From Cylindrospermopsis raciborskii Cr2010 (GTDB lineage: Bacteria; Cyanobacteriota; Cyanobacteriia; Cyanobacteriales; Nostocaceae), in contig NZ_CP065936.1 of the NCBI RefSeq assembly GCF_003367075.2, forward strand, positions 1,080,001 to 1,112,000: a stretch of DNA of 32,000 nt. Direction: 5' to 3'. Shown here in pieces: positions 4,260 to 32,000 of the stretch. Made by a program: the position numbers and the translations under genes. Within the stretch, counting starts at the first letter, position 1; the number at the start of each line of letters is the position of its first letter. Under the pieces are notes generated by a model, which saw only the letters and a program-made list of their open reading frames with translations, did not search any database and had not been told where the DNA came from.

Positions 4260-5609
4260 GTGCTAACACAAGATGTTCGCAACGCTTTGGATGTTGCTGA
4301 CCTAAATAAACTCAAATATGATTTGAATAGTCTGCAACCTGTAGACGTAGGAGAGTATATTTCAGAATTGCCAGAACAACAAAGGGCGATCGCTTTTAGG
4401 TTGTTGAATAAAAATCAGGCCATTGATGTTTTTGAGTACTTACCTACGGATGTGCAGGAGGAATTGATTAATTCCTTACATGATGTTCAGGTGGTACATC
4501 TGGTAGAAGAAATGAGTCCTGATGAGAGGGCGTATTTATTTGATGAATTACCTGCAGGGGTGGTTAAAAGACTATTACAACAACTTAGTCCAGAACAAAG
4601 ACAAGCAACTGCGACAATTCTGGGATATCCCGAAGGTACTGCAGGTAGGGTAATGACCACAGAGTATGTGCGTTTGCGTCAAGGGTTAACAGTGGGGGAA
4701 GCATTAAGTAAAATTCGTCTTCAAGATGAGGATAAGGAAACTATTTACTATGCTTATGTGACTGATGACAACCGTAAGTTAGTGAGCGTGGTTTCCTTGC
4801 GTCAATTGTTATTTACCTTTCCAGAAGTTTTCATCAGGGATATTGCTAGTTCTCAGGTAGTAAAAGTAACTACTGAAACTTCCCAAGAAGAAGTGGCGCG
4901 GATCATGCAGCGTTATGATTTAATAGCCATACCTGTGGTAGATCGGGAGGATAGATTAGTAGGAATTATTACTATTGATGATGTGGTTGATATTTTACAA
5001 GAGGAGGCCACGGAGGATATTCAAAAATTGGCAGCGGTAAGTGGCGATGAAGAGGCTTTATCCCCACCCCATTTGACCATTCGCAAACGCTTACCCTGGT
5101 TATTAGGTATCATGGCATTGTATATTGGTGCAGCTAGTGCGATCGCTCCCTTTCAGCGGGTAATTGCAGCGGTTCCGGTTTTAGCGGTGATTATGCCCAT
5201 ATTTTCTAATACTGGGGGGACTGTGGGTATTCAGGCTTTAACTGTGACCATTCGGGGTTTAGGTGTAGGGGAGGTGACCACAAAGGATGCTGGGAAAATT
5301 TTGCGGAAGGAACTAATAGCGGGTTTGGGAACCGCTTTAGCCTTAGGTTCAACCATGATTCTACTTTCTTTGATTTGGGCAAAACCCGATGAAAAGTGGG
5401 TAGCTTTAATTGCTGGTGTGGTAATGGCCACCAACACCATGGTTGCTGTGAGTTTGGGGACTTTATTACCTATGGGATTACAAAGGCTAAAATTAGATCC
5501 AGCTTTAATGAGTGGTCCACTGGTGACAACTATGTTGGATACTATTGGTTTTTTAACCTTCTTGAGCATGATTTCCCTTGCTTTGAAAGTATTTAATTTA
5601 AGCTATTAG
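4260..5609 (+). CDS. mgtE: Magnesium transporter MgtE
   Basis: A GTG start is preceded by AGGAGG. An MgtE N-domain, tandem CBS domains ([23 protein letters not shown]) and a C-terminal five-helix membrane domain are present. Confidence 0.9.
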
Positions 5610-15355: not shown

Positions 15356-15431
15356 AGAACGTAGGTTGGGTTGAGGAACGAAACCCAACGCCCCCATGAG
15401 CATCCTACAAATAATTGTGCCTCCCTACTTA
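15356..15431 (+). repeat. MITE-like element, copy 1: REP hairpin (GTAGGTTGGGTTGAGGAACGAAACCCAAC) plus a conserved tail (CATCCTACAAATAATTGTGCCTCCCTACTTA)
   Basis: The same two-part element recurs at 20577-20667. The REP part recurs at 26513, 29335, 29437 and throughout 30147-32000. The element ends 14 nt before the ABC transporter ATG. Confidence 0.75.
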
Positions 15432-15445
15432 TAGGAGTTTAGGAA

Positions 15446-18163
15446 ATGATTTCAGCCCTTTCTCAAGAACATATATCTGCCCAAATTAGTCATATTTTAG
15501 GTAAATCCCTGGATCAAAAGGATTTAGAAAATTGTTTGCAAAAATTGGAAATCATTGAACCTATTGTGGGGAAACAATTTTGGCAATCTGAAACCGCCCG
15601 CCCAGGAATTTATTTAGTATTATCAGGTCGAGCGAGAATATTAGATAGTAGGAACAATTTAGTTAGCACTTTAACATTGGGAGCATGCTTTGGGGAGTTG
15701 ACATTATTTCCCGAATATGATTTTGCCAATTATGTTGTTAGAGCTTCCGTAGATTTAAAGATTGGTTATCTTCCCCAGGAAGTAATTAATCAATTGCCTA
15801 GTGTTCTAGAGCGTCTGCTACTCCAAGCCAAGAATTGGGATAGCTTTTTAAAAACACACCTAGAAACACCAATCTCTACCACAAGTCAGAATATCATTCA
15901 ATTTCCTCCAGAGAGGAAACCAGTTAAACCAGCTAAACCAGAACGGAAAAAATCACAAAAATACTTCCCTACTCCCACAGTTACAGTTAGTAATTGGTGG
16001 CATAAAATTAGTAAACGATACCCATATTTTGAACAACAAAGTGCTTCCGACTGTGGCGCAGCTTGTTTAGTAATGATTAGCCGTTATTGGGGGAAAAATT
16101 TCAGTATTAATCGTCTGCGAGAACTGGCTAATGTTAACCGTTCTGGTGCATCAATGAAAAGTTTAACCAGTGCTGCTGAAAGTATTGGTTTTGCCACCCG
16201 TCCAGTAAAAGCCAGTTTAGATAAATTTGCTCAGCAACCATTACCCGCGATCGCCCATTGGGAGGGAAAACATTATATAGTAGTCTATGAGATTAGCAAA
16301 AAACAGGTAATTGTAGGAGATCCCGCTATTGGACAACGAACTTTAACAGTTGAGGAATTTAAAGCTGGGTGGACTGGTTATGCACTATTATTAGAACCTA
16401 CAAAATCTTTTCAAGAGAGCATAGAAGCTAACAGCCCATTTTGGCAGTTATTTGAGTTAGTGAAACCTCACTTTCAGATACTTGTAGAAGTTTTGGTGGC
16501 TTCGATTTTAATTCAGATCTTTGGTTTGGTAACACCCCTATTTACCCAACTTTTGTTGGATCGGGTTATAGTTCAGGGTAGCACAATAACCCTAAATACA
16601 GTTGGGTTTGGTTTACTAATTTTCGGATTATTTAGAGTAGTGATTAATGGACTTAGACAATATTTATTAGACCACACAGCTAATAAAATTAGCGTAGCAT
16701 TATTGGTGGGATTTATCAAACATACATTTTTACTACCCTTGTCTTTTTTTGAGTCTCGTTATGTGGGTGACATTGTTTCTCGCGTACAAGAAAACCAAAA
16801 AATTCAGCGATTCCTCACGGGGGAAGCCCTATCTATTATTCTAGATTTACTAACGGTATTTATTTATGTAGGCTTGATGTTTTGGTATAGTCCACCTCTA
16901 GCATTGTTTGTTTTAGCAATTGTCCCACCATTTGTTTTTCTAGCATTATTTGCCACACCTTTTTTGAGACGTATTAGTCGAGAAGTATTTGGAGCATTAG
17001 CCAAAGAGAATAGCTATTTAATTCAGGCTTTAAGTGGCATTTCTTCAATTCGTTCCTTAGCTATAGAACAAACTGTAAGATGGCGCTGGGAAGAATTACT
17101 ACATAATTTGACCAAGAAAAACTTTGCCGTTCAAATTATTAGTAATAAGTTACAAATAATTAGTGCCACCATTCAATCTTTAGCAACAACAGGCTTACTC
17201 TGGTTTGGCGCTTGGTTAGTAATTCACAATCAGTTGACTATTGGTCAACTAGTAGCCTTTAATATGTTATTAGGCAACATTATCCAGCCTTTTCAAAGGT
17301 TAATCGTGTTGTGGAATCAACTTCAAGAAGTTATAGTTTCTACCGAGCGCATTAATGATGTATTAGAAGCAGAAGTAGAAGAAGATTTAGTCATCCAACC
17401 TCGGCAAAGTCTATCAAAACTAAGGGGAGAAATTTGCTTTGAAAATGTCACCTTTCGTTATCACAAAGACAGCGATATTAACATTTTAGAAAACATCAAC
17501 TTTCACATTAAACCTGAACAAACCGTAGCAGTAGTAGGAAGAAGTGGATCTGGTAAGACAACTCTATCCAAACTAATTTTAGGATTATATCCTGCGACAG
17601 ATGGTAGAATTTTAATAGACAATCAAGATGTGACAAGTATTGCTCTCAAATCCTTACGGTCTCAAATAGGGGTTGTGGACCAGGACACATTTTTATTTGG
17701 TGGTACAATTAGAGAAAACATCAGTATTGCCCATCCAGAATCCACCTTAGAAGAAATCATTACCGTGGCACAATTAGCAGGTGCAGATGAATTTATTAAA
17801 TTTATGCCCATGGGTTACGAAACTCAAATTGGTGAGGGAGGAGGTATGTTATCGGGGGGACAAAGACAACGATTAGCTATAGCTAGAGCATTATTAGGAA
17901 ATCCGCGCCTTTTAATATTAGATGAAGCCACCAGTCATCTAGATGCAGAATCTGAAAGAATTATTCAAAAAAACTTGCAGAAAATTCTCAAAGGACGCAC
18001 TAGTTTAATAATTGCCCATCGTCTATCTACCGTACGTCATGCTGACTTAATTTTAGTATTAGATCGGGGAATTTTAGTCGAGCAAGGTACTCACGAAGAA
18101 TTGATTGCTAAACGTGGAAATTATTACTATCTTAATCAACAACAGTTATCCGTAGTTAGTTAG
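15446..18163 (+). CDS. Cyclic-nucleotide-binding-domain / C39 peptidase / ABC transporter fusion (PCAT-type bacteriocin/peptide exporter)
   Basis: The N-terminal cNMP-binding fold carries FGELTLF. The C39 domain has apparently intact catalytic positions (QQSASDCGAACL, HYIVVY, VGDPA). Six transmembrane helices follow. The nucleotide-binding domain has Walker A GRSGSGKTT, signature LSGGQRQR and Walker B LLILDEATSHLD. Confidence 0.88.
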   Translation: MISALSQEHISAQISHILGKSLDQKDLENCLQKLEIIEPIVGKQFWQSETARPGIYLVLSGRARILDSRNNLVSTLTLGACFGELTLFPEYDFANYVVRASVDLKIGYLPQEVINQLPSVLERLLLQAKNWDSFLKTHLETPISTTSQNIIQFPPERKPVKPAKPERKKSQKYFPTPTVTVSNWWHKISKRYPYFEQQSASDCGAACLVMISRYWGKNFSINRLRELANVNRSGASMKSLTSAAESIGFATRPVKASLDKFAQQPLPAIAHWEGKHYIVVYEISKKQVIVGDPAIGQRTLTVEEFKAGWTGYALLLEPTKSFQESIEANSPFWQLFELVKPHFQILVEVLVASILIQIFGLVTPLFTQLLLDRVIVQGSTITLNTVGFGLLIFGLFRVVINGLRQYLLDHTANKISVALLVGFIKHTFLLPLSFFESRYVGDIVSRVQENQKIQRFLTGEALSIILDLLTVFIYVGLMFWYSPPLALFVLAIVPPFVFLALFATPFLRRISREVFGALAKENSYLIQALSGISSIRSLAIEQTVRWRWEELLHNLTKKNFAVQIISNKLQIISATIQSLATTGLLWFGAWLVIHNQLTIGQLVAFNMLLGNIIQPFQRLIVLWNQLQEVIVSTERINDVLEAEVEEDLVIQPRQSLSKLRGEICFENVTFRYHKDSDINILENINFHIKPEQTVAVVGRSGSGKTTLSKLILGLYPATDGRILIDNQDVTSIALKSLRSQIGVVDQDTFLFGGTIRENISIAHPESTLEEIITVAQLAGADEFIKFMPMGYETQIGEGGGMLSGGQRQRLAIARALLGNPRLLILDEATSHLDAESERIIQKNLQKILKGRTSLIIAHRLSTVRHADLILVLDRGILVEQGTHEELIAKRGNYYYLNQQQLSVVS

Positions 18164-19742: not shown

Positions 19743-20528
19743 ATGTTAGAAAAAATCAATGTTGGTGATCAAGATATTCTGTATCACCTAAAAATATCTT
19801 GTCAAATGCCCAACATATTAGATGCGATCGCCAGTAGGAAAATAGTGACACAGACAGCGATGAAAGAAGATATTCAGATAACCACAGCGGAACTACAGCA
19901 AGCAGCGGACAATCTGAGATTAGCCAATAACCTAGTCAAAGCAGAAGACACCTGGGCCTGGTTAAAGAAACACTATTTATCCCTAGATAACTTTGAAGAA
20001 ATTGCCTACACCAACCTACTATCTGCCAAATTGGCTAATCATTTATTTGCAGACCAAGTGGAATCATTTTTTTATGCTCATCAACTGGAATACATTGCAG
20101 CAGCAATTTATGAAGTCATATTAGATGATGAAGATTTAGCCCTAGAAATATTTTATGCCCTGCAGGAAGGGGAAATTAGCTTTCATGAAGTAGCTCGTCA
20201 ATATATTCAAAATCCAGAACTCCGTAGAGCAGGGGGATATCAAGGTATGCGTGAGCGAAAAGATTTCAGACCAGAAATTGCTGCGGCCATTTTTGCTGCT
20301 AATCCTCCACAAATCCTCAAACCCATCACCACACCTCAAGGAGTGCGTATCATCATGGTAGAAGAGATTATTCAACCCCAGTTGAATGAACAGATACGTC
20401 TGAGAATTATAGGAGATTTATTTACAAATTGGTTGAGACAACAAATAAGTACCCTAGAAATCGAAGTTAATTTAGGAGCTAAATACAATCTACCTCTGTC
20501 TCCACTTATCATCACTCAGACTAGTTAA
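19743..20528 (+). CDS. Parvulin (PpiC)-like peptidyl-prolyl isomerase-fold protein, possibly non-catalytic
   Basis: The C-terminal half reads ...EISFHEVARQYIQNPELRRAGGYQGMRERKDFRPEIAAAIFAA.PPQILKPITTPQGVRIIMVEE, which follows the rotamase pattern F..lA..yS....GG.lG.....f...f.......P..t..G.hii. It is the third gene of the exporter operon. Confidence 0.6.
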   Translation: MLEKINVGDQDILYHLKISCQMPNILDAIASRKIVTQTAMKEDIQITTAELQQAADNLRLANNLVKAEDTWAWLKKHYLSLDNFEEIAYTNLLSAKLANHLFADQVESFFYAHQLEYIAAAIYEVILDDEDLALEIFYALQEGEISFHEVARQYIQNPELRRAGGYQGMRERKDFRPEIAAAIFAANPPQILKPITTPQGVRIIMVEEIIQPQLNEQIRLRIIGDLFTNWLRQQISTLEIEVNLGAKYNLPLSPLIITQTS

Positions 20529-20550
20529 AATGTACTAACATATCCACAGA

Positions 20551-20706
20551 GTTTCAACCTTCCCATGCGGGGATGGAGAACGTAGGTTGGGTTGAAGTAT
20601 GAAACCCAACACCCAGATGGGTCTCGTTACTCGACCCATCCTACAAATAATTGTGTCTCCCTACTTAACACCAAAGTTTCAACCTCCCCATCCGGGGATG
20701 GAGAAG
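20551..20706 (+). repeat. Two 31-nt direct repeats (GTTTCAACCTYCCCATSCGGGGATGGAGAAS) bracketing MITE-like element copy 2 (20577-20667)
   Basis: The repeats at 20551-20581 and 20676-20706 match at 28 of 31 positions. Each contains a small CCCC/GGGG hairpin. The interior matches the 15356-15431 element with a roughly 15-20-nt insertion. Confidence 0.7.
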
Positions 20707-20729
20707 TTGAGAAACCAACAAACTCAAGT

Positions 20730-23700
20730 TTAAGAAAGAGCAAAAACCGCATCATTGAAATCATTGTTGGAATATTGGGTAGCGGTAGCGGGTAAATCCT
20801 CAAATCCATAGACTCCATTACCATAGGAACGGAGATGGGGAGATTTATCGGGATTAGCTGACCCAAAGCTAAAATAGGCTACAGGTTCCTGTACGAATCT
20901 AGGTGCATTATTGAACTCATTATCTACTTCCGTAGCAACAAGGTCTCGCACATGTTTAGGTGCATTGGCAAACCGGTTTACGTCTCCGTTTTCAGCAGCG
21001 ACGAAATCTTCTACTCCCTGTTGTAAATTGGGGAAGTAAGTTCCACAGTTAGCAATCACAAAAGGAGCATAAAACTTATTACCTTGAAGTGACACACCAG
21101 ACCCTAATTGTGTAGCGGTGCTGGGAATATCGCTATTACCTGCTTGTACTATGAAGTCCTTGACTCTAGCAGTGGTGAGAGCATAAAACGCATAATCGCT
21201 ATCTCCCGGTTTTAAGACCCCTTTCTCAGTATTAATTTCTCCTTGAGCATTCAAGACCTCGTATAGTCCAAATAAGTGGTTAAAATTGGACTTTGTTCCA
21301 TTTTGGACACCGGTAACTTCATTAGACATGGATAGTCTATTTGTGTCTAAAGACAGATTTCCTCCCCCATTGGTGCTGAAAACCAAACCCGTGGATATAT
21401 TCACGTTGGGTGCGTAATCAATAATAGGGGTGAGGGTGCGATCGTCATTGGTAATTGTTCCTGTGACTACACTGGTGGTGTCAATGTTGTAACCAGTGCC
21501 AGGAGCCAAAGTTAACTCCACTGTTTCATCCCCTTCTACTGTGGTGTCAGCTATGGGGTCAATAGTAACTGTAGCGGTGGATGACCCAGCAGCAAAAGTG
21601 ACAGTCTTTGTGGTTCCTGCACTGATAATCCCTGTGTAATCCGTGTCTAGGGTAGCTGTTCCCCCAATGGTGTAGTTTACAGCTAGAGTGTTAGTGATGG
21701 AACCAGTGCGGGTGAAGGTGTAGATTAGGTTATTATTTCCATCTTCTGTAACGGTGGTAGGGGAGACAGCTAGGTTGACCTGGGTGACTTGGGTATCATC
21801 ATTGATAATAACACCACTGGCAATATAGTTCAAAGAACTTATTCCTCCACTATAATCCACGCTGTAGTCCCAAGCTGTTCCTTGAACATTACCAGTAATT
21901 ATCACTTTGACCTGGTCTCCAGCTTTTAATTTGACTGAATTCAGGTCTAAAGATCCCTCTCCAGAGACAAATCCATTAGTTTGGTTTTGCAACACATTAT
22001 TGACAAGTATCTCCGCTTTATCTGGAATAGCGTACATATTATAGTTCAGCTTAAAGATACCATCTCCTGATGAAATATTGTAAAACTTCTCGGTTACCCC
22101 ATAACCACCTGAAGCTGACTCTCGGATATTAGTTCCGACAGAGGATGTACCCAAAACTGCTCCTATGGGGTTGGAGAGGGTAACTGTAAACCCTTCATCC
22201 GGTTCAAATGTGGTGTCTCCTGACACGTTCACTGTGATGATTTGACTGGTTTCACCTGCTGCAAAACTGACCATACCACTTGGTAGTGTTCCACCAAAAT
22301 CCGTAACATCTGCTTGGTTAGTGCTAGACCCTGTTACTGCCCAATTAGCACTGCTACTGCCAGTAGTATCTCCACTGCGGGTAACAGTAAAAGTAAAGGC
22401 TTTTGTACCTAAGTTCCCTTCCGTTTGAATGGCATTGGTAGGGGCGATCGCCAGTCCAGGAGCAACAACAACATCATCGTTTTGGATAGTTCCTACAGCA
22501 GTAGCAGTGGTAATGGTAGCATTGGTCGGGTTGGAGAGGGTAACTGTAAACCCTTCATCTGGTTCAACAGTGGTGTCTCCTAACACATCTACTATGATAG
22601 TTTTACTAGTTTCACCTGCTGTAAAATTCACTGTACCAGTTGGCAGGGTTCCACCAAAATCCGTGACATCTGCTGGGTTAGTGCCAGACCCGGTTACTGC
22701 CCAATTAGCACTGCTACTGCCAGTAGTATCTCCACTGCGGGTAACAGTAAAAGTAAAGGCTTTTGTGCCTATATTTCCTTCCGTTTGAATGGCATTGGTA
22801 GGGGCGATCGCCAGTCCAGGAGCAACAACAACATCATCGTTTTGGATAGTTCCTACAGCAGTAGCAGTGGTAATGGTAGCATTGGTCGGGTTGGAGAGGG
22901 TAACTGTAAACCCTTCATCCGGTTCAACAGTGGTGTCTCCTAACACATCTACTATGATAGTTTTACTAGTTTCACCTGCTGTAAAATTCACTGTACCAGT
23001 TGGCAGGGTTCCACCAAAATCCGTGACATCTGCTTGGTTAGTGCCAAATCCAGTAACTGCCCAATTAGCACTGCTGCTACTAGTGGTATCTCCACTGCGG
23101 GTAACAGTAAAGGGAAAAGCTTTTGTACCTGAGTTCCCTTCCGTTTGAGTGGCGCCGGTAGATGCGATCGCCAGTCCAGGAGCAACAACAACATCATCGT
23201 TTTGGATAGTTCCTACAGCAGTTGCAGTGGTAATAGTTGCCCCACCAGTGGCATTAGAGAGGGTAACCGTAAAGACATCCACGCTGGGGAAATCACCATC
23301 CACTTCAGGGGTAGTGTCTCCTTGCACATTCACTGTGATCACTTTACTAGTTTCATTTCCTACAAAGTTAACTCTTCCCGAGGGAAAAACACCTCCCACA
23401 AAGTCATCCCCAATAGCGGATTCCATCCCATCTATAACAGCTGTAAGTACGGGACTTTGTACTGTATAATCAACACTGACTGGAGTTAAGATATAGCCAC
23501 TCCGGTTGACAATAAATGTGAATGCCTTGCTACCACTATCTCCCTCAGGTTGGTTAGCATTTTCAGGAGCGATCGCCAATGTGGGAACATCATCTTCTAA
23601 CTTAGTGATAAAGACATCAAAAGATCCACTATTATTTTGTCCATCCAGGTTGCTATCAGTTATCCCACCTAAATAGATCGAGCCATCTTTTCCCGTGGTT

Positions 23701-25313
23701 AGGGTGGTTGGATAATTACTACCAGTCAACAAGGGGGGACTTTTCCAGATTTGATCACCGTTCGTACTGTACTTGGTGATAAAGCTCTCAGATGCTTGAA
23801 ATCCAAGGTAAGAATTAGGGTCAAGCTGGATATCTGGAGAAACCCCCAGATAAATGGAGTTATCATTCCCAATGCTTAAAGATCCTAGATCATCTCCACT
23901 AGTACCTATTAGCTTTGTCCAAACTTTACTTCCATCTGAACTGTACTTGCTAATAAATACATCTGATAAACCGCTATTAGGTTGCCCATCTAAATTTCCA
24001 CCGCTCGTACCACTAACATAGATAAATCCGCTACTATCTGTAGCTAACCCCGATGGTGTTTCATCTTCAATTGTTCCTAATACCCTCGTCCAAATCCGGT
24101 TGCCATTTGGATCATATTTACTGACAAATACATCTGTCGCTCCATTGTAGTTTTCTCCATCCAATTTCCACTCAGTATAACCTGTGACATAAATTGATTG
24201 GTCACTGCCGACAGTTAAAGCAATAGCCTCTTCATTACCACTAAGTGTTCCTAGTAACTTTGTCCAAATCTTAGTACCACTTGAGTCATATTTACTAACA
24301 AAAGCATCGGAAAGTAACTGACCACCTACACTAGTTTGGGTTGGGTCAATAGTGCTTCCTGAGATATATATGGAACTATCACTGCCAGCAACCACTGCAT
24401 AGGCAATATTTAGACTACCAGTATTTATATCTACCAACTGGGTCCAAACTTCATTGCCATCTGGATCATATTTTCTAATAAACGCTCCCAAACCGGTGCT
24501 ATTCTGACCACCAAGGTTCCCTCCTGTAACCCCAGCTACATAGATAAATCCATCACCAGATATGGTTACTGCATCAGCAATGTCACCTGCAACAGTACCA
24601 AATTGTTTTTTCCAAACATTTGTGCCATTGTCGTCGTATTTGGCAATAAAAGCGTCTTGAAGTCCCCTATTGCTTCCATCCAGATTGCCCTCCGTGAAAC
24701 CAACTATGTAGAGGGATCCGTCAGTTCCCACAGTTAAGTCCACACCAAAATCAATACCGCTGGTTCCTAATAAACGTGTCCAAGCTACTACGGGCAAGAT
24801 TGAACCATTCTTTTCTACTTCTACTGTTTTGCCATCAATGGTTACTGATGCTAGATCTTCTTCTGCTTTTAACCGACTAATCTCATCCTTATTTAATCCT
24901 TCACCCTGCACCAATGCAGCAAAAATCGCCCCTTCATCTCCGGGACTATCCACTGTATTAATATAAGCATCTACATAATGCCCTATTTCTTCTATAAGCA
25001 CCTTGCTAACTAAACCTAAAGTGCCCTTCTCTATTAACTTGCTAGACAGATAAATCCTATTCTCACTTGACGAGTAGGCACCATTACCATCGCCTAGAAT
25101 ACCGCCATCTACAATCTCCATTTGCGGTAACTGACTAAAATCCCCTTTTTGCCACTGTAACCTCAGTATTTGGGCATTTTCTCTGTTATATTCCGTACCA
25201 AACGCCGTATCCAACACTTGCCAAAAGTCACCTGACAAAGAAAAAACCCACAGCTGGTGCAATGCACTATTTAAGCCCTGATTAGTTATTTTCGCCACGA
25301 CCAAAAACCTCAC
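20730..25313 (-). CDS. Giant secreted/surface-type protein: conserved N-terminal module, 6-7 SBBP-like beta-propeller blades, about 5 Calx-beta domains and a DUF4114-like C-terminus
   Basis: Blade motif D[AV]F[IV][SA]KY[DS]..G...W is repeated. Calx-beta-like 120-aa units are present (LAIAP..A.QTEGN.GTKAFTFTVTRSGDTT....ANWAVTG...DFGG..P.G.V.F.AGETSK.I.V.V.GD...EPDEGF.V.LSNP). The C-terminus reads YGFEDL......NDFNDAVFALS. The start is uncertain. The ORF track extends to 25421, but residues upstream of about 25330 are encoded by the IS terminal repeat. GTG 25313, TTG 25304 and GTG 25298 are the first candidates in native sequence. Confidence 0.8.
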   Translation of the reverse strand: MRFLVVAKITNQGLNSALHQLWVFSLSGDFWQVLDTAFGTEYNRENAQILRLQWQKGDFSQLPQMEIVDGGILGDGNGAYSSSENRIYLSSKLIEKGTLGLVSKVLIEEIGHYVDAYINTVDSPGDEGAIFAALVQGEGLNKDEISRLKAEEDLASVTIDGKTVEVEKNGSILPVVAWTRLLGTSGIDFGVDLTVGTDGSLYIVGFTEGNLDGSNRGLQDAFIAKYDDNGTNVWKKQFGTVAGDIADAVTISGDGFIYVAGVTGGNLGGQNSTGLGAFIRKYDPDGNEVWTQLVDINTGSLNIAYAVVAGSDSSIYISGSTIDPTQTSVGGQLLSDAFVSKYDSSGTKIWTKLLGTLSGNEEAIALTVGSDQSIYVTGYTEWKLDGENYNGATDVFVSKYDPNGNRIWTRVLGTIEDETPSGLATDSSGFIYVSGTSGGNLDGQPNSGLSDVFISKYSSDGSKVWTKLIGTSGDDLGSLSIGNDNSIYLGVSPDIQLDPNSYLGFQASESFITKYSTNGDQIWKSPPLLTGSNYPTTLTTGKDGSIYLGGITDSNLDGQNNSGSFDVFITKLEDDVPTLAIAPENANQPEGDSGSKAFTFIVNRSGYILTPVSVDYTVQSPVLTAVIDGMESAIGDDFVGGVFPSGRVNFVGNETSKVITVNVQGDTTPEVDGDFPSVDVFTVTLSNATGGATITTATAVGTIQNDDVVVAPGLAIASTGATQTEGNSGTKAFPFTVTRSGDTTSSSSANWAVTGFGTNQADVTDFGGTLPTGTVNFTAGETSKTIIVDVLGDTTVEPDEGFTVTLSNPTNATITTATAVGTIQNDDVVVAPGLAIAPTNAIQTEGNIGTKAFTFTVTRSGDTTGSSSANWAVTGSGTNPADVTDFGGTLPTGTVNFTAGETSKTIIVDVLGDTTVEPDEGFTVTLSNPTNATITTATAVGTIQNDDVVVAPGLAIAPTNAIQTEGNLGTKAFTFTVTRSGDTTGSSSANWAVTGSSTNQADVTDFGGTLPSGMVSFAAGETSQIITVNVSGDTTFEPDEGFTVTLSNPIGAVLGTSSVGTNIRESASGGYGVTEKFYNISSGDGIFKLNYNMYAIPDKAEILVNNVLQNQTNGFVSGEGSLDLNSVKLKAGDQVKVIITGNVQGTAWDYSVDYSGGISSLNYIASGVIINDDTQVTQVNLAVSPTTVTEDGNNNLIYTFTRTGSITNTLAVNYTIGGTATLDTDYTGIISAGTTKTVTFAAGSSTATVTIDPIADTTVEGDETVELTLAPGTGYNIDTTSVVTGTITNDDRTLTPIIDYAPNVNISTGLVFSTNGGGNLSLDTNRLSMSNEVTGVQNGTKSNFNHLFGLYEVLNAQGEINTEKGVLKPGDSDYAFYALTTARVKDFIVQAGNSDIPSTATQLGSGVSLQGNKFYAPFVIANCGTYFPNLQQGVEDFVAAENGDVNRFANAPKHVRDLVATEVDNEFNNAPRFVQEPVAYFSFGSANPDKSPHLRSYGNGVYGFEDLPATATQYSNNDFNDAVFALS
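22150..23230. repeat. Three tandem, near-identical 360-bp (120-codon) repeats inside the giant gene (Calx-beta units)
   Basis: The landmark gtaacagtaaaagtaaaggcttttgt recurs at 22381 and 22741, and diverged at 23101, giving an exact 360-bp period. The plus-strand shadow ORFs 22429-22788 and 22789-23148 differ at only 5 of 119 residues. Confidence 0.9.
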
Positions 25314-25330
25314 ACAATTGTTTTTAAAAA

Positions 25331-26344
25331 TAGAGCTGTTGGGAAATAAAAGCATATTTCCGGATGACAGAACTTCCCCCATCCCGATTGAATTTATGCT
25401 GCATCTAAATAGAAGTTCCATAGCCCTGCACTGACCAACATCAATTGATCATCAAAATCGGTCACACGATTCCTATATACAGAATGTACACAGTTATATC
25501 TCTTAATTCCAGAGTGAGCGTGCTCACACACAACTCGCTGACGACTGAGTTCTCGATTCTCCTCCTTTTGCTGCTGTGTTAACTCCTTACCTTTCGGTTT
25601 CTTGTGTGGTAAATGGACATTGACAAATTCTTTCTCCAACCCATGAAAACCCAAATCTCCCTCTATTGCTACTTCATCAGGAATGTATTGCACTATCTCT
25701 GATTCATGGAGTAGCCGTTTGTCATGCACTTTACCTGCTCTGGTTTTCGTCAGAATAATCACTCGTTTCTCCCTTGTGCTGACTGTAATCTGCTTGCATG
25801 TATGCCGCTTTTTCTTGCCAGAGTAATACTCTTTTTGGCGTTCTCGGTTTTGAGGACGCTGGACTGGACGCTCCGTACCATCCACAATCACCTCCTTCAC
25901 ATCTGGAAACCTTTTGGTGAATTCCTGCTCCTGAGTTTGCGTGCTGGCAAAACTTGCTTTTCTCCTAAAGTGGTTTCTAGCACAGACAGTAGTCGATGTA
26001 CCCAATCATGAGCACAGGAGCGGTCAAAGTTGAACAACACACTCAGCAAGTCAAACGTCGGATAACATTTGCAGTACAGCAGGATATAAAATAGTTTTTC
26101 CTCTATACTTCTGAGTGTAGGCTTGCGTCCGCCCCCGGGCGCACGTTTGCGGTTTGCTAAGGAGTTGAACACGGTGCGTTCATAGGTATCAGCAAACTGA
26201 GATAACAGCTCGTTGAATGCTTGGCGGTTAAGTCCAGTCATTGCTCGTAGCAGTCGCTCTTGATTCAGGACGCGGTCTAACTTCAACATTAATGTCACCC
26301 TACTTGTCTGCTTGATTATTATCCCTTATTTTCCAACAACTCTA
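25331..26344 (-). mobile_element. IS element of about 1.0 kb, IS5-family / Harbinger-like (HTH_Tnp_4 + DDE_Tnp_4 type), with imperfect terminal inverted repeats
   Basis: IR at 25331-25349 (TAGAGCTGTTGGGAAATAA) matches the reverse complement of 26326-26344 (TAGAGTTGTTGGAAAATAA) at 17 of 19 positions. TA dinucleotides at both junctions may be a target duplication. The element encloses the transposase reading frames. Confidence 0.8.
25394..26298 (-). pseudogene. IS5/Harbinger-type DDE transposase split into two frames (133-aa HTH part and 203-aa DDE part)
   Basis: ORF A (26298-25897) ends ...LGEKQVLPARKLRSRNSPKGFQM*. ORF B continues in the -1 frame with ...QEFTKRFPDVKEVIVDGTERPVQRP...YSGKKKRHT...HDKRL...VVCEHAHSGIKRY. 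Family members that I recall are single ORFs, so a 1-nt indel near 25930-25945 is implied. Confidence 0.75.
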
Positions 26345-26512
26345 ATATTTGGTTAACAGTAGCAATCCTAACAGGGATTATAACATATCTATCTCAAATA
26401 AAACAATGAGCATGTTACAAAATGTTACAAATCCCATATCCTCCGTTTGGGTTGCATCAGTTTGAAATCAGTGATTTTTTATCACGCAGCATTACATGTA
26501 ATTAATAGAGCT

Positions 26513-26541
26513 GTTGGGTTTCGTTCCTCAACCCAACCTAC
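26513..26541 (-). repeat. Solitary REP hairpin in inverted orientation, abutted by a 13-nt match to the IS terminal repeat (26506-26518)
   Basis: GTTGGGTTTCGTTCCTCAACCCAACCTAC is the reverse complement of the REP consensus. TAGAGCTGTTGGG at 26506-26518 is identical to the first 13 nt of the IS left IR. Confidence 0.7.
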
Positions 26542-26650
26542 ATTCCAAATTTAGAATTGCTGACTAAATGGCATTTCCAGTCCACCGATTGTACTATAAT
26601 TCCTATATCCTTACCAAAACCCAACTGGATGTATAAACAAAAGTTACGCC

Positions 26651-27259
26651 ATGGCTTACAGTGAGTTCACCACCCTAGATAAGGTAATAAAAACCTTTAG
26701 CTTGCAGGTAGAAGAAGACCAAAATTTGTTTTGTGAGGTCAAACCTCTCCAACCTTCAGATTATCTTCAGCAGACCCTACAGGAGTATTTGCCCTTAGCA
26801 ACTGCCATTAATACAGAAAAAGCCCGTTCCGAATTTCTCATCGCCCCAGTGTTAGCAGAGCTACGCCGTCAAACTAAACACCAAATCAGTCTGTTTTCCG
26901 GTACTGAGTTTAATGTAGATCCGGAAAGGGGTTTGGTGGGATTTTGCGATTATTTAATTAGCCATTCTAAGGAACAGTATTTTATCACAGTGCCAGTCAT
27001 CGCTGTGGTAGAAGCAAAAAATGAAAATATTAAAGGGGGATTGGGACAGTGTATTGCCGAAATGGTCGCAGCCCAGTTGTTTAATTCCCAAGGAGGGACT
27101 CCCTTGACTTATATTTATGGGGTCGTTTCTACGGGGACGGTTTGGAAGTTCTTGCGTCTGGAAAACGCGACTGTTTTTATTGATTCCCTAGAGTACTATA
27201 TTAACCAAATTGATAGAATATTAGGCATTATGATGTTACCGCTGTGTAAAGCTTACTAA
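26651..27259 (+). CDS. Hypothetical protein with a PD-(D/E)xK / HsdR-N-terminal-like restriction-endonuclease fold
   Basis: The 202-aa protein has a motif arrangement ...GFCDYLIS...(16 aa)...VIAVVEAKNENIKGG that resembles the D...(D/E)xK core of HSDR_N-type domains. No partner methylase, helicase or specificity gene is nearby. Confidence 0.5.
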   Translation: MAYSEFTTLDKVIKTFSLQVEEDQNLFCEVKPLQPSDYLQQTLQEYLPLATAINTEKARSEFLIAPVLAELRRQTKHQISLFSGTEFNVDPERGLVGFCDYLISHSKEQYFITVPVIAVVEAKNENIKGGLGQCIAEMVAAQLFNSQGGTPLTYIYGVVSTGTVWKFLRLENATVFIDSLEYYINQIDRILGIMMLPLCKAY

Positions 27260-27394
27260 AATACCCAATTAAGACCTTTTGTACGAATAACCGAGCAGAT
27301 GGGCCTTCTATCAAAATTTTGCCAGATTATTATTCATGGTACCAAATCCCCTACAATAAATATCACTGATACAGAAATTCAGGAGAGTTAAGCC

Positions 27395-27706
27395 ATGCCA
27401 ATGGCAGTTGGCGTTATCGAAACTTTAGGTTTTCCCGCAGTTTTAGCCGCAGCAGATGCTATGGTTAAGTCTGCTGCTGTCACAATCGTATACTATGGCA
27501 TTGCAGAAAGTGGAAGGTTGTTGGTTGCTGTTAGAGGACAGGTAGCAGAGGTGAAAACCGCTGTTGCAGCTGGAATAGCTTCCGAAGAAACCGTTTATGG
27601 TGGTCAGGTGATTACTCATTACATAGTCCCCAACCCACCGGAAAATGTGGAGACAATTCTACCCATCCATTTCACTTCTAAGTCCGAACCTTTTCGCATT
27701 TTTTAA
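27395..27706 (+). CDS. ccmK3: Carboxysome shell protein CcmK3-type (BMC-H)
   Basis: [34 protein letters not shown]...HYIVPNPPENV is the BMC domain with the CcmK3-typical YY and VPNPPENV features. It is paired with a CcmK4-type gene downstream, as in other cyanobacteria. Confidence 0.85.
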   Translation: MPMAVGVIETLGFPAVLAAADAMVKSAAVTIVYYGIAESGRLLVAVRGQVAEVKTAVAAGIASEETVYGGQVITHYIVPNPPENVETILPIHFTSKSEPFRIF

Positions 27707-27743
27707 CTTGTACCGGTAATTTTATTTATACAGGAGATTAGTA

Positions 27744-28094
27744 ATGTCCCTACAGGCCGTTGGATCTTTAGAAACAAAGGGTTTTCCCGCAGTTTTAGCA
27801 GCAGCAGATGCTATGGTTAAAGCTGGAAGGGTAACTTTGGTCGGTTATATCCGAGTTGGTAGCGCCCGCTTTACAATCAATATTCGTGGTGATGTTTCTG
27901 AGGTGAAAACTGCCATGGCCGCTGGTGTGGAAGCAGCACAAAATGTCTATGGTGGTACTCTGGAATCCTGGGTAATTATCCCCCGTCCCCATGAAAACGT
28001 GGAAGCTGTCTTACCTATTGCTTACACAGATCAAGTCCAGCAATATCGAGACTCGGTGGAAAACCCCATTGTCCGCTCCTCCAGTGGTAGATAG
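27744..28094 (+). CDS. ccmK4: Carboxysome shell protein CcmK4-type (BMC-H)
   Basis: [57 protein letters not shown]...[11 protein letters not shown] closely follows the CcmK4 pattern. Confidence 0.85.
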
Positions 28095-28190
28095 TTTTTG
28101 GTAACTATCTCAACCTATCTTTTTGGAATACAAACGGCTTTTGTTAATGCCGACTTAAATGGTGCAGCAAATATTTTAGGCGATTTTACT

Positions 28191-29324
28191 ATGGAACTAA
28201 GTGCAGCAAATATAGCAGAATATTGGCGGAAACGACTCGCTGCTGAGTCTCCTGAAAACAGTGATGACGCTAGAAATAGTATTATGCTTTGGCTTTTGGG
28301 GTCGGACTTAACCAGATTTGCAGGGTTCACACCCAAAGAATTGGAGATTGCTCAAAAGGCTATGGAATATCGCTGGCGAGTTCTACGACAGCGATATTTA
28401 GGTGTGGGAAGGGAACAGGCCTATCGTAATTTGATGGTTCGCTTGGCAAGTGTTACCACAATTAGAAATAAAATTCAAACCTGGGTCTCTTTAAGTCGCG
28501 ATCGCCAGCGTAGTGTGATAGATGTACTGCAAGAGGTAATTCAGGAAATGCTGCAAAGTGATTCTTATATGCAGCAGCAAATGAGTCTAATTGCCGACGC
28601 AACTGGGGATAAAAGGTTACGAGACATGTTATTATTTGCCAGCTTAGAAGAATACTGTTTACGACCTGTGCGTAATCAACCTTTATTGACACATCGGTTT
28701 GTCAATTATTTACGCCGCATTCAGCGAGGGGGATTGACTCAAATTCCAGGTAAGGACGTGATTAGACTGGTTTCTGACGAAATATTAACAGAAGATACGG
28801 AAAGCAACTTAAATCTTTTAGATGACGAAGCGATCGCCCAGTATCAGGAGGCGCAAAAGGTAGAGGAGCAACAATTGTTACGTCAGGAAGTGCAAGAGAA
28901 ATTTGAGGAATACCTATTAGAGAAGCTGGGAGAAACAGCGGTGGAGTGGTTGAGGTTATATTTAGAGGGTAAGAGTCAAGAGGAGATTGCTAAAAAGCTG
29001 AATCAGCCAATTAAGGAGTTATACAGATTAAGGGAGAAAATTAGTTACCATGCTGTTAAAGTTTTTGCCATCAAGGATAAACCGGAGTTGGTAGAGAATT
29101 GGTTATCAACGTCTTTAAAGGAAGATGGTTTAGGTTTAACGCCAAAACAATGGGAGCAGCTGAGGGAGAAGATAAGTCCCCTAGGTAGGGAGATTCTTGA
29201 TAGAAGGAAAGGGGGGGATTCTCTAGCGGGAATAGGGGAGAAATTAGAGTTGAAGACCCATAAAGTGATAGGTGAGTGGACAAAAGTTTATTTAGTAGCT
29301 CAGAATTTAAGGGCCCAAAATTAA
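28191..29324 (+). CDS. HetZ-like protein with a C-terminal sigma-70 region-4/LuxR-like HTH
   Basis: The core YRWRVLRQRYLGVGREQAYRNLMVRLASV..IRNKIQTWVSLSRDRQRSVIDVLQEVIQEMLQSD matches my recollection of the cyanobacterial HetZ / HetZ-related family. The C-terminus EWLRLYLEGKSQEEIAKKLNQPIKELYRLREKISYHAVKVF is an HTH. I prefer ATG 28191 to the track's TTG 28098. Confidence 0.5.
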   Translation: MELSAANIAEYWRKRLAAESPENSDDARNSIMLWLLGSDLTRFAGFTPKELEIAQKAMEYRWRVLRQRYLGVGREQAYRNLMVRLASVTTIRNKIQTWVSLSRDRQRSVIDVLQEVIQEMLQSDSYMQQQMSLIADATGDKRLRDMLLFASLEEYCLRPVRNQPLLTHRFVNYLRRIQRGGLTQIPGKDVIRLVSDEILTEDTESNLNLLDDEAIAQYQEAQKVEEQQLLRQEVQEKFEEYLLEKLGETAVEWLRLYLEGKSQEEIAKKLNQPIKELYRLREKISYHAVKVFAIKDKPELVENWLSTSLKEDGLGLTPKQWEQLREKISPLGREILDRRKGGDSLAGIGEKLELKTHKVIGEWTKVYLVAQNLRAQN

Positions 29325-29334
29325 TTTGATGACC

Positions 29335-29540
29335 TAGGTTGGGTTGAGAAAACCCAAAAAATCAACGGGGATCTCAATAACAAATCTGACCCAAAAACTA
29401 TTTGAATCCATATCTACTCATATCCAACTTGATGAGGTAGGTTGGGTTGAGGAGCGAAACCCAACAAACCAACAGGTAGCTCAATAACAAATCTAACCCA
29501 CGAACCATTTGAATCCATATCTACTCATGCCCAATATGAC
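29335..29540 (+). repeat. Tandem duplication (about 107-bp period) of REP plus spacer plus the last codons of the RAYT gene
   Basis: Copy 1 starts at 29335 (TAGGTTGGGTTGAG-AAAACCCAA...TCTCAATAACAAATCTGACCCA...TTTGAATCCATATCTACTCATATCC). Copy 2 starts at 29437 (GTAGGTTGGGTTGAGGAGCGAAACCCAAC...GCTCAATAACAAATCTAACCCA...TTTGAATCCATATCTACTCATGCCC). Copy 2 contains the real RAYT stop at 29521. Confidence 0.8.
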
Positions 29541-30063
29541 CACCAAAAACATGCCTTTCTTCCGCTCCCCACATAACATCATAAAATCCCGCTTGAACAT
29601 AACGATGAAAACTTGAATACTGCCAATCTTTTGGTGCATTTACCAATCCATGACGAACCGGATTATAGTGAATATACTCGACATGATTAATAAAATCTCG
29701 ATCATCCCGAATTTGATGCTCCCAAAAGCGACGTTGCCAAATTGGCTTTTCACCTTTTTGCTCCTGAGATAAAGTCATTGTTCCCTGACAAGAAACCTGA
29801 CATTTACGACTAAAATAACTTTTAATTAATCGCCAACGAGTCGAAAAATCCCCATCATTTTCAGGTAATGTCCAAAGACAATGAAGATGCTCAGGCAAAA
29901 TAACGATCGCATCAATTTTAAATTGGTAGTTTTTCATCACATATCGAAACGCTTCCCTTAGTAAATCTATATTTTCCGATTTACCTAAAATGGGACGACG
30001 ACAATAAGTAACAAGAGTGAAAAAATAGGTCGCCCCTGGTGTCTTTGCTCGACGATATTCCAT
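29521..30063 (-). CDS. REP-associated tyrosine transposase (RAYT; IS200/IS605 TnpA-like HUH Y1 enzyme)
   Basis: MEYRRAKTPGATYFFT..., the HUH motif LPEHLHCLW and the catalytic-Tyr region HVEYIHYNPVRHGLV..DWQYSSF are present. REP hairpins lie on both sides. I prefer ATG 30063 because the track's extension to 30105 reads through repeat sequence. Confidence 0.85.
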   Translation of the reverse strand: MEYRRAKTPGATYFFTLVTYCRRPILGKSENIDLLREAFRYVMKNYQFKIDAIVILPEHLHCLWTLPENDGDFSTRWRLIKSYFSRKCQVSCQGTMTLSQEQKGEKPIWQRRFWEHQIRDDRDFINHVEYIHYNPVRHGLVNAPKDWQYSSFHRYVQAGFYDVMWGAEERHVFGGHIGHE

Positions 30064-30085
30064 ATTATAATTAATGAAACAGAAA

Positions 30086-32000
30086 AGGATAACCCAACAA
30101 ACCAACAGAGAGAAAAACAGATACCCTTAAAACATTATATAATCCCGTAGGTTGGGTTGAGGAACGAAACCCAACAAACCCCACTGTTAATTATAGTCCA
30201 TGTGAACTCCTTGTATTATAGGGTGAGCGGTTTGATTTTACTTCCAGCGATCGCCTGTTTTTAAAAATATTTACCGTAGGTTGGGTTGAGGAACGAAACC
30301 CAACAAACCCCACTGTTAATTATAGTCCATGTGAACTCCTTGTATTATAGGGTGGGCGGTTTGATTTTACTTCCAGCGATCGCCTGTTTTTAAAAACATT
30401 TACCGTAGGTTGGATTGAGAAAACCCAACAAACCCCACTGTTAATTATAGTCCATGTGAACTCCTTGTATTATAGGGTGGGCGGTTTGATTTTACTTCCA
30501 GCGATCGCCTGTTTTTAAAAACATTTACCGTAGGTTGGATTGAGAAAACCCAACAAACCCCACTGTTAATTATAGTTTATGTGAACTCCTTGTCTTATAG
30601 GGTGAGCGGTTTGATTTTACTTCCAGCGATCGCCTGTTTTTAAAAACATTTACCGTAGGTTGGATTAAGAAAACCCAACAAACCAACAGAGAGAAAAACA
30701 GATACCCTTAAAACATCATATAATCCCGTAGGTTGGGTTGAGGAACGAAACCCAACAAACCCCACTGTTAATCATAGTCTATGTGAACTCCTTGTATTAT
30801 AGGGTGGGCGGTTTGATTTTACTTCCAGCGATCGCCTGTTTTTAAAAACATTTACCGTAGGTTGGATTGAGAAAACCCAACAAACCCCACTGTTAATTAT
30901 AGTCCATGTGAACTCCTTGTATTATAGGGTGGGCGGTTTGATTTTACTTCCAGCGATCGCCTGTTTTTAAAAACATTTACCGTAGGTTGGGTTGAGGAAC
31001 GAAACCCAACAAACCAACAGATACCCTTAAAACATTATATAATCCCGTAGGTTAGATTGAGAAAACCCAACAAACCTCACCGTTAATTATAGTCTATGTG
31101 AACTCCTTGTCTTATAGGGTGGGCGGTTTGATTTTACTTCCAGCGATCGCCTGTTTTTAAAAACATTTACCGTAGGTTGGATTGAGAAAACCCAACAAAC
31201 CCCACTGTTAATTATAGTTTATGTGAACTCCTTGTCTTATAGGGTGAGCGGTTTGATTTTACTTCCAGCGATCGCCTGTTTTTAAAAACATTTACCGTAG
31301 GTTGGATTAAGAAAACCCAACAAACCAACAGAGAGAAAAACAGATACCCTTAAAACATCATATAATCCCGTAGGTTGGGTTGAGGAACGAAACCCAACAA
31401 ACCCCACTGTTAATCATAGTCTATGTGAACTCCTTGTCTTATAGGGTGATCGGTTTGATTTTACTTCCAGCGATCGCCTGTTTTTAAAAACATTTACCGT
31501 AGGTTGGATTGAGAAAACCCAACAAACCCCACTGTTAATTATAGTTTATGTGAACTCCTTGTCTTATAGGGTGATCGGTTTGATTTTACTTCCAGCGATC
31601 GCCTGTTTTTAAAAACATTTACCGTAGGTTGGATTGAGAAAACCCAACAAACCCCACTGTTAATTATAGTTTATGTGAACTCCTTGTATTATAGGGTGGG
31701 CGGTTTGATTTTACTTCCAGCGATCGCCTGTTTTTAAAAACATTTACCGTAGGTTGGGTTGAGAAAACCTAACAAACCCCACTGTTAATTATAGTCCATG
31801 TGAACTCCTTGTCTTATAGGGTGGGCGGTTTGATTTTACTTCCAGCGATCGCCTGTTTTTAAAAACATTTACCGTAGGTTGGGTTGAGGAACGAAACCCA
31901 ACAAACCAACAGATACCCTTAAAACATTATATAATCCCATAGGTTAGATTGAGAAAACCCAACAAACCTCACCGTTAATTATAGTCTATGTGAACTCCTT
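30086..32000 (+). repeat. Long tandem non-coding array (continues beyond the window): 13 A units of 125-129 bp, the last truncated by the window end, plus 5 B/B' units of 65-73 bp (including the RAYT-proximal partial copy), all in one orientation
   Basis: A-unit starts are 30147, 30276, 30405, 30530, 30728, 30857, 31047, 31172, 31370, 31499, 31624, 31749 and 31939. B/B' starts are 30655, 30982, 31297 and 31874, plus the RAYT-proximal copy at 30091-30146. The A unit is a REP hairpin followed by CCACTGTTAATTATAGTCCATGTGAACTCCTTGTATTATAGGGTGGGCGGTTTGATTTTACTTCCAGCGATCGCCTGTTTTTAAAAACATTTACC. No ORF of 60 aa or more occurs in any frame. Confidence 0.95.

Follow-up and report, generated by a model that had tools for sequence, protein, structure and literature searches.

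RESULTS AND DISCUSSION

A tandem array of REP hairpins adjoins a RAYT gene

The window analyzed here is a stretch of 32,000 nucleotides from the genome of Cylindrospermopsis raciborskii Cr2010 (contig NZ_CP065936.1), and all positions given below are those of the window unless another source is named. Near one end, it carries a gene for a transposase associated with repetitive extragenic palindromes (REPs), a REP-associated tyrosine transposase (RAYT, or TnpA_REP), and upstream of this gene lies a tandem array in which each unit opens with a REP hairpin. The array was parsed into units by anchoring on the motif CCGTAGGTT, which gave 17 head-to-tail units from position 30145 to the window edge at 32000 (Table 1). 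The order of the units, named by type and length in base pairs, was A129 A129 A125 A125 B73 A129 A125 B65 A125 A125 B73 A129 A125 A125 A125 B65 A(64), the last being cut by the window. Tandem Repeats Finder (TRF) reported 125-bp arrays with a 92 to 97% match, together with higher-order periods of 190 and 327 bp. The initial annotation of this DNA had placed a hierarchical array at this location, and both TRF and unit parsing reproduced its tandem structure, including the higher-order recurrence, in which the block from 30528 to 31169 is repeated from 31170 with two additional A units. As had also been proposed, the array lacks coding capacity, its longest open reading frame (ORF) being at most 41 amino acids (aa); exact look-ups of two array ORFs gave no record, which is uninformative.

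Table 1. Parts of the REP array and of the adjoining RAYT region
Feature	Position	Strand	Basis
Second small array, 107-bp unit (REP plus ~80-bp tail), 1.9 copies, 85% match	29326..29528	+	TRF; REPs at 29334 and 29437
RAYT (TnpA_REP), 180 aa	29521..30063	-	HUH (HLH) and YxxxNP motifs intact
B0, RAYT 5' leader/upstream region: truncated REP remnant GGATAACCCAAC plus B tail AAACCAACAGAGAGAAAAACAGATACCCTTAAAACATTATATAATC	30064..30144	+	Direct reading
A units 1 to 4 (129, 129, 125, 125 bp)	30145..30652	+	Motif anchoring, TRF
B73 unit, REP (TTAAG variant) plus full B tail	30653..30725	+	Motif anchoring
A units 5 and 6 (129, 125 bp)	30726..30979	+	Motif anchoring
B65 unit, long-loop REP plus B tail without AGAGAAAAACAG	30980..31044	+	Motif anchoring
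A units 7 and 8 (125, 125 bp)	31045..31294	+	Motif anchoring
B73 unit, second copy, identical to 30653-30725	31295..31367	+	Motif anchoring
A units 9 to 12 (129, 125, 125, 125 bp)	31368..31871	+	Motif anchoring
B65 unit, second copy	31872..31936	+	Motif anchoring
A unit 13, truncated at window end	31937..32000	+	Motif anchoring

Each unit opens with a shared REP module of about 40 bp, CC-GTAG-GTTGGRTT-GAG(GAACG)AAA-AACCCAAC-AAACC. In the A units, the GTAG-tagged hairpin module, CCGTAGGTTGGRTTGAG[GAACG]AAAACCCAACAAACC, is followed by an 88-bp tail with one highly iterated palindrome 1 (HIP1) site. The hairpin had been described beforehand as a GTTGGGTT/AACCCAAC stem, with a short-loop variant carrying an A/C mismatch and with one HIP1 site per A unit; all of this was recovered, the loop of the regular form being 9 nucleotides (nt) long. 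In all units, as well as in the dispersed copies described below, GTAG stands directly 5' of the stem-loop, so that these elements are GTAG-tagged REPs. The B units consist of the REP followed by a tail of 32 bp (B73) or 24 bp (B65) that copies the RAYT leader at 30091 to 30144. The B tail differs from the roughly 55 bp before the RAYT ATG by one substitution (CATTAT versus CATCAT), in agreement with the proposal that the B units duplicate the 5' region of the RAYT gene, and, judged by its sequence, B0 is the source of the B units.

The array does not fall into the more familiar classes of REP-containing or repeated elements. All 17 array REPs lie head-to-tail on the plus strand and do not form the inverted pairs with a short linker that define bacterial interspersed mosaic elements (BIMEs). 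Nor are the units REP doublets forming hairpins (REPINs), since they are direct repeats and since the A tail was not found elsewhere in the sequence searched. Finally, the arrangement is not that of a CRISPR array, as the would-be "spacers," the A tails, are themselves the repeat, with 92 to 97% identity.

The RAYT protein matched the Pfam Y1_Tnp domain and the NCBIfam REP_Tyr_transpos equivalog model (NF047646; 210 bits against a cutoff of 80), while it scored 24 bits with an IS200 model, under that model's cutoff of 55. It also aligned with the crystallized TnpA_REP of Escherichia coli (4ER8; E = 6e-40), including the HLH and YxxxNP/catalytic Tyr regions. The predicted protein is by these matches a bona fide RAYT. 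Its gene was found at one place per assembly by an exact-protein look-up, which would not show diverged paralogues. The gene has two cognate REPs 3' of it, at 29334 and 29437, and those of the array 5' of it, which is the organization of a REPtron. The 107-bp REP-plus-tail unit on the 3' side is present in two copies in most strains and in one copy in two of them (L001 and L003; comparison loci are given as L numbers), and it is thus also copy number polymorphic.

The array is hypervariable among strains

The exact RAYT protein was on record in 98 sample blocks, and 10 places, all in genomes other than that of the window, were taken with their flanks. The locus was common to at least 10 other C. 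raciborskii assemblies, in which RAYT was 100% identical, and the flank on the side of RAYT and the neighboring gene for HetZ-related protein 2 (20001 to 30060, the sole flank within the window) was 98 to 99.8% identical across strains. The arrays of six large assemblies comprised 11, 14, 20, 20, 23, and about 35 units (1.3 to 4.3 kb) in differing orders, the largest count being approximate because many units of the assembly concerned (L001), a noisy one, contain indels. Neither end of the array varied. At the proximal end, a long-loop A129 unit always came first, 82 bp away from the RAYT ATG. At the distal end, a terminal REP with the extended palindrome CCGTAGGTTGGATTGAGAAAACCCAACCTACGG was separated by unique DNA of about 105 bp from an inverted REP, beyond which came an 83-aa gene; in most strains, the array closed with the block B65 / A(GTTAGATT) / A / terminal REP. 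Three short-read contigs (L007, L008, and L010) stopped inside the array, and another (L137, from the same assembly as L007) began at the distal junction.

The initial annotation had named an assembly expansion as the finding that would undo it. The array is genuine and not an assembly artefact, since independent assemblies, at least six of them large, share its ends and differ in its internal order and since short-read assemblies break inside it. With head-to-tail units numbering from 11 to about 35 per strain between shared ends, the locus is a hypervariable minisatellite, or variable-number tandem repeat (VNTR).

Array units differ from dispersed REPs

The canonical long-loop REP is dispersed: it was located at 15361 (+) and 26513 (-), and a variant with an altered loop was located at 20582 (+). 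The 32-kb window holds five copies outside the array altogether, and further ones were found in the neighboring DNA of other strains, including beyond the array. Such copies frequently have a conserved tail of about 65 bp that differs from those of the array. An exact 29-nt REP core, GTAGGTTGGGTTGAGGAACGAAACCCAAC, was present in at least 120 stretches of other genomes from many cyanobacterial genera and orders. RAYTs of 60 to 84% identity likewise had a wide distribution; the cognate RAYTs are only about 63 to 84% identical.

The units of the array had a different distribution. Outside the array, neither the A tail nor the B tail had a match, whether in the window, in the 20-kb neighborhoods of six strains, or among loci of other species, more than 120 of which were covered. 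The A unit, translated without stops into 55 aa, had two matches in 5.8 billion protein clusters, both fragments at the ends of C. raciborskii contigs; one maps to the distal junction of the array, and the other is on a 251-bp contig. Moreover, the short-loop REP with the A/C mismatch, which dominates the array, was absent among the dispersed REPs nearby and essentially absent from the REPs at 120 loci of other species. Since this REP form was essentially absent, and the A and B tails were unmatched, in the other sequence searched, the array appears to have grown by local copying and not by arrivals of dispersed REPs. A search for other sequence within the locus that might have supplied the A tail (blastn, word size 7) gave only low-complexity HIP1 and T5A5 matches, and such an origin was rejected.

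Two side observations concern the dispersed elements. A composite repeat made up of GAAC, a GTAG-REP, and a conserved tail of about 65 bp (ACCC.CA..GGGTTAC.CTACC.CTAACC.ATCCTACAAATAATTGTG.CTCCCTACTTAA) was found at 15361 to 15460 and 20582 to 20680 of the window and at 4844 to 5020 and 6108 of L002. The tail seems to hold a second, inverted GTAG-type hairpin, and this composite may be the real mobile REP doublet of the genome. At one site, it is present as an 86-bp head-to-tail dimer. In addition, REP-core matches were found in metagenome-assembled genomes (MAGs) labeled Desulfobacteria, Poribacteria, Gammaproteobacteria, and Thermodesulfobacteriota, and the identity of the core across phyla indicates strong conservation, horizontal transfer, or contamination of the MAGs.

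Four RAYT homologues in other cyanobacteria lack such an array

Four RAYT homologues with 64 to 81% identity (L131, L133, L134, and L136) resided in ordinary REPtrons, with an upstream spacer of about 45 to 215 bp, one GTAG-REP shortly before the start codon, and REPs after the stop codon. No REP-bearing tandem array of at least 2.8 copies was found in 120 REP-bearing loci. By these comparisons, the array is not a general feature of the RAYT family. Adjacent REP pairs at the loci of other species were inverted in eight cases and head-to-tail in two. Within C. raciborskii, tandem duplication of a REP with its tail was recurrent, as there is, besides the 107-bp unit on the 3' side of RAYT, an 86-bp REP-plus-tail head-to-tail dimer beyond the array. 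It was also observed that the GTAG tag of the start-proximal REP is on the RAYT coding strand in all four homologous loci. In C. raciborskii, both 3'-side REPs and all those of the array have GTAG on the other strand, an arrangement resembling an inversion of the gene with respect to its REPs.

Relation to known systems

Tandem amplification of REPs at a RAYT gene has been described previously. The tnpA_REP gene has tandem BIMEs at its borders, in varying numbers that are strain dependent, tandem BIME copies at one locus are well conserved, and strand transfer by TnpA_REP can assemble tandem copies in vitro; Ton-Hoang et al. proposed "diversification followed by local amplification" (Ton-Hoang 2012, PMC3333891). 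The statement in the initial annotation that REP/RAYT systems occur as dispersed singlets or doublets was therefore too strong. REP clusters reiterated in tandem together with flanking DNA have likewise been reported, as have GTAG families in the Nostocales and Cyanothece, and head-to-tail REP dimers were described as rare, absent, or underrepresented (Di Nocera et al. 2013, PMC3733652).

The C. raciborskii array resembles the E. coli REPtron (PMC3333891) in that GTAG-REPs border an apparently single-copy RAYT gene, are amplified at that locus, vary in copy number among strains, and are present in copies that closely resemble one another. It differs in consisting of single head-to-tail REPs with an 88-bp linker rather than inverted BIME pairs with short linkers, in its far greater length (11 to about 35 units, 1.3 to 4.3 kb), and in its cyanobacterial host. 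Moreover, the RAYT leader has here been copied as a second unit type, and the GTAG tags are opposite the RAYT strand. With the REPs cataloged by Di Nocera et al. (PMC3733652), the array shares the GTAG-tagged stem-loop with a stem of 6 to 13 bp and the tandem arrangement of REP and non-REP DNA, but that work holds no example of such an array size or of attachment to a RAYT gene. REPINs (Bertels & Rainey 2011, PMC3116915) are likewise tied to a single-copy RAYT gene, and the terminal REP with the inverted REP about 105 bp away, at the distal end in other strains, is a REPIN-like feature; the array units, however, are direct repeats rather than inverted doublets and gave no indication of dispersal. 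Bacterial minisatellites or VNTRs share with the array the unit length, the head-to-tail order, the mosaic units, the conservation of the ends around a variable interior, and a copy number specific to the strain; here, however, a hairpin recognized by a transposase is embedded in each unit, and the gene of the cognate transposase lies directly next to the array.

No paper describing the C. raciborskii array was found in a literature search. The genome paper on C. raciborskii CS-505 and D9 reported an internally repetitive cluster with 39 occurrences, which cannot be equated with the array locus (PMC2821919). Because tandem REP and BIME amplification has been published, the array represents a phenomenon already known; as a case of local tandem REP amplification it is unusually large, but it is not a new kind of system.

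Unit variants indicate exchange between units

The A units that parsed cleanly, 74 in all from the window and from five further assemblies, comprised 27 distinct variants; with the noisy assemblies included, there were 53 variants among 117 A units. All four allele combinations were present in 37 of the 78 informative site pairs of the 74-unit set, a sign that units have undergone recombination or gene conversion with one another. The combinatorial shuffling of unit variants seen in the initial annotation was thus borne out and put on a quantitative footing. In all strains, wherever the next unit parsed cleanly, B73 preceded a long-loop A unit with AATCAT/GTCTATG, and B65 preceded a GTTAGATT short-loop A unit. 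Where A and B tails have been swapped, the changeover coincides exactly with the limits of the shared REP module of about 40 bp, as would be expected if the REP modules supply homology or cleavage sites. Fixed ends, a variable interior, and block-wise higher-order repeats are together the product expected of unequal sister-strand exchange.

A diverged form of the unit was observed in C. raciborskii CS-506_A (contig VDFG01000389.1; L140, positions 1 to 251). These A' units, 107 bp long and in tandem, are without about 30 bp of the A tail, namely the TATAAT/AAGGAG/ATG segment, and have a different right half, GGTTTGGTTTTACTTTCAAAACTGCGATCGCTTG. A match to the A' signature in L112 was a chance match in an unrelated coding context and was discarded.

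Recombination and slippage as the probable source of array variation

On balance, we lean toward the explanation that the array is a locus-bound minisatellite driven by recombination or slippage, that it was seeded within a REPtron, and that it has no dedicated function. An A segment (the REP module with its 88-bp linker) and a neighboring B segment (a REP with the RAYT leader) would have been duplicated head-to-tail, the first duplications possibly having been seeded by RAYT. The 125-bp homologies and those of about 40 bp in the REP modules would then drive unequal homologous exchange, replication slippage, and gene conversion, through which the array would expand, contract, and be reshuffled rapidly with both ends remaining in place. 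Most of the remodeling would be due to ordinary recombination or slippage and not to RAYT catalysis, and the array would be without a dedicated cellular role. If it is a recombination by-product only, the array would be an extreme yet ordinary minisatellite.

Several points weigh against this explanation. The present evidence does not separate RecA-type exchange from strand transfer catalyzed by RAYT, and the position of the array next to RAYT, with REP-plus-tail duplication flanking both sides of the gene, would fit an enzyme-driven process as well. The presumed locus specificity of the A tail rests on about 1 Mb of sequence and on an indirect protein database probe. A-tail probes gave no matches in public genome, metagenome, and viral contig collections, a result that is uninformative because a JGI contig known to hold the probe (L010) was not returned either. 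The A' units of CS-506_A, on their 251-bp contig, may lie at this locus or elsewhere in the genome. Lastly, the REP-stem variants, read in the RAYT sense, are mostly G-U compatible, as would fit a transcribed RNA, although only three or four independent mutations are involved.

The features assigned to the array at the outset thus remained in place: it contains REPs, is attached to RAYT, includes copies of the RAYT leader, and is hierarchically organized and reshuffled by unequal exchange or gene conversion. Of the origins then suggested, a by-product at the home locus of RAYT is the best supported.

Possible amplification by RAYT

A rival explanation is local amplification catalyzed by RAYT, in which TnpA_REP would cleave single-stranded REPs and add REP-plus-linker units in cis by strand transfer or rolling-circle copying, as in the models of Ton-Hoang et al. 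(2012, Fig. 7; PMC3333891); occasional use of the REP beside the RAYT leader would yield the B units. We regard this explanation as possible but doubtful. It accounts for the abutment of the array and RAYT, for the REP-plus-tail duplications on both sides of the gene, and for unit junctions that match the ends of the REP module. RAYT is intact, is 100% conserved among strains, and is homologous to the biochemically active E. coli enzyme, which builds tandem BIME copies in vitro (PMC3333891). Head-to-tail REP pairs are otherwise rare, both in our comparison (two versus eight inverted) and in the literature, where they are underrepresented (PMC3733652). However, the most amplified units have the short loop and the A/C stem mismatch, unlike the canonical dispersed REP, and selection for substrates of the enzyme would predict otherwise. 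Mosaic units between fixed ends are a classic signature of homologous unequal exchange. Moreover, the four RAYT homologues are without such an array, and the array tags are opposite the RAYT strand, while the start-proximal REP of those four species is on it.

The stronger form of this proposal, in which the adjacent RAYT both wrote and rewrote the array in cis by cleaving REP hairpins and then carrying out strand transfer or rolling-circle copying, is in our judgment unlikely. If it were true, the leader copies would be footprints of the enzyme, and the array would be a natural and rapidly evolving in vivo record of RAYT-driven REP amplification, a process so far demonstrated solely in vitro, with the E. 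coli enzyme; expression of RAYT might then be subject to feedback from the amplified promoter-like boxes.

The locus bears on how REPs multiply and on what RAYT does in vivo. Both are open questions, and REPIN turnover is normally too slow to observe. Here, unit number and order have changed fully among strains whose flanks are 98 to 99.8% identical, beside a conserved and intact RAYT gene, which makes the array a tractable readout. Because of the array, RAYT also has many REP hairpins, as well as repeated boxes resembling promoters, in its upstream region. Finally, it is a potential high-resolution marker for strain typing of bloom-forming C. raciborskii/Raphidiopsis and a predictable breakpoint of short-read assemblies.

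Promoter and small-RNA tests

The array might instead function in transcription, with its units serving as promoters or small RNA (sRNA) genes on the RAYT strand, either as a multipromoter or decoy region or as a counterpart of the NsiR1 array. This was judged improbable. Matches resembling sigma-70 promoters, almost all of them on the RAYT strand, numbered 24, compared to 7.6 +/- 2.6 in shuffles, but they represent only some three motifs in repeated copies. The promoter-like boxes of the units are ACTATAAT and TATATAAT, and the B units carry copies of the -10-like box found upstream of RAYT. This B-unit box varies as TATAT[A/G]AT; the initial annotation had put the variable letter at a different position. 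Six units have a perfect CCCTATAAT, as had been noted, but an ATG follows in only four of the six, and the fifth ATG-bearing unit (31747) has TATAAG. Both the -10 box (TATAAT/TATAAG) and the ATG of the mini-ORF (ATG/ATA) are thus polymorphic among units.

At the RNA level, cmscan with Rfam 15 gave no match at E<=1 in the interval from 28500 to 32000, and no terminator-like site was found in the array (2.9 expected). RNA folds of the A and B units and DNA folds of the A unit, on both strands, were no better than those of shuffled sequences (z = -0.9 to +0.5). The proposed check for covariation, performed with RNAalifold on 25 distinct units in the RAYT sense, gave a negligible covariation term of -0.86 kcal/mol. 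One long-range pair changed from C-G to U-A in two variants; together with the G-U-compatible stem variants of the minus strand, it favors a transcribed RNA, but it represents too few independent events.

NsiR1 of Anabaena/Nostoc is an sRNA of about 60 nt; its repeats, about 12 in number, lie upstream of hetF, and each has a promoter and a terminator of its own. Like that array, the C. raciborskii units are noncoding, in tandem, and head-to-tail in a heterocystous cyanobacterium, with a -10-like box per unit. They differ in having no Rfam match, no terminators, and no excess structure and in having HetZ-related protein 2 and RAYT as neighbors. An NsiR1-like array, which the initial annotation had suggested, is therefore unsupported, given also the polymorphic boxes and the deletion of the corresponding segment from the CS-506_A A' units. 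The change from 11 to 35 units between nearly identical strains likewise counts against a transcription array in general.

Least probable by far is an assembly artefact or a local pile-up of an ordinary dispersed MITE (a miniature transposable element with inverted repeats): short-read assemblies do collapse or break at the array (L007 to L010 and L137), and the absence of the A tail from the rest of the genome was read from a search of about 1 Mb, but the common ends and differing orders of at least six independent large or complete assemblies, the unmatched A and B tails, and the placement of the one mappable A-derived ORF match at the array locus all contradict it.

Neighboring genes and additional repeats

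The gene at 28098 to 29324, beside RAYT, encodes HetZ-related protein 2 (595 bits) and is preceded by two BMC-domain genes. A link to hetZ/patU heterocyst patterning was rejected, as this neighbor scored 67 bits with the HetZ model, whose cutoff is 550. An association of the array with the replication origin or terminus was also rejected, because GC skew does not switch at the array.

The order ccmK-ccmK-HetZ-related protein 2 is kept in Sphaerospermopsis and Anabaena (L138 and L139), where a Crp-like regulator and an M61 peptidase follow. In C. raciborskii, the same genes are followed by RAYT, the array, several ORFs of 55 to 95 aa, and a pair comprising a C39-peptidase ATP-binding cassette (ABC) exporter and HlyD. 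Different genes after a conserved block indicate that RAYT and the array mark a synteny break or rearrangement breakpoint. No similarity to the REP, to RAYT, or to the A and B tails was found after HetZ-related protein 2 in Sphaerospermopsis or Anabaena, and since the genes at this place differ in these relatives, derivation of the A tail from ancestral intergenic DNA was rejected.

Other repeats were noted in passing. Downstream of HetZ-related protein 2 in Sphaerospermopsis (L138, 8189 to 8330), there are heptamer-type runs (GGGTGTA, CTCTTGC, and CACCTGT) that resemble the short tandemly repeated repetitive (STRR) sequences of cyanobacteria. Within the window, the ORF at 20730 to 25421 (minus strand), which encodes a 1563-aa Calx-beta/DUF4114-type protein, contains an in-frame tandem repeat of 360 bp in 3.0 copies (22168 to 23234; 92% match). 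The called length of its orthologue ranges from 1027 to 1668 aa across strains, and this gene is therefore also polymorphic in repeat length.

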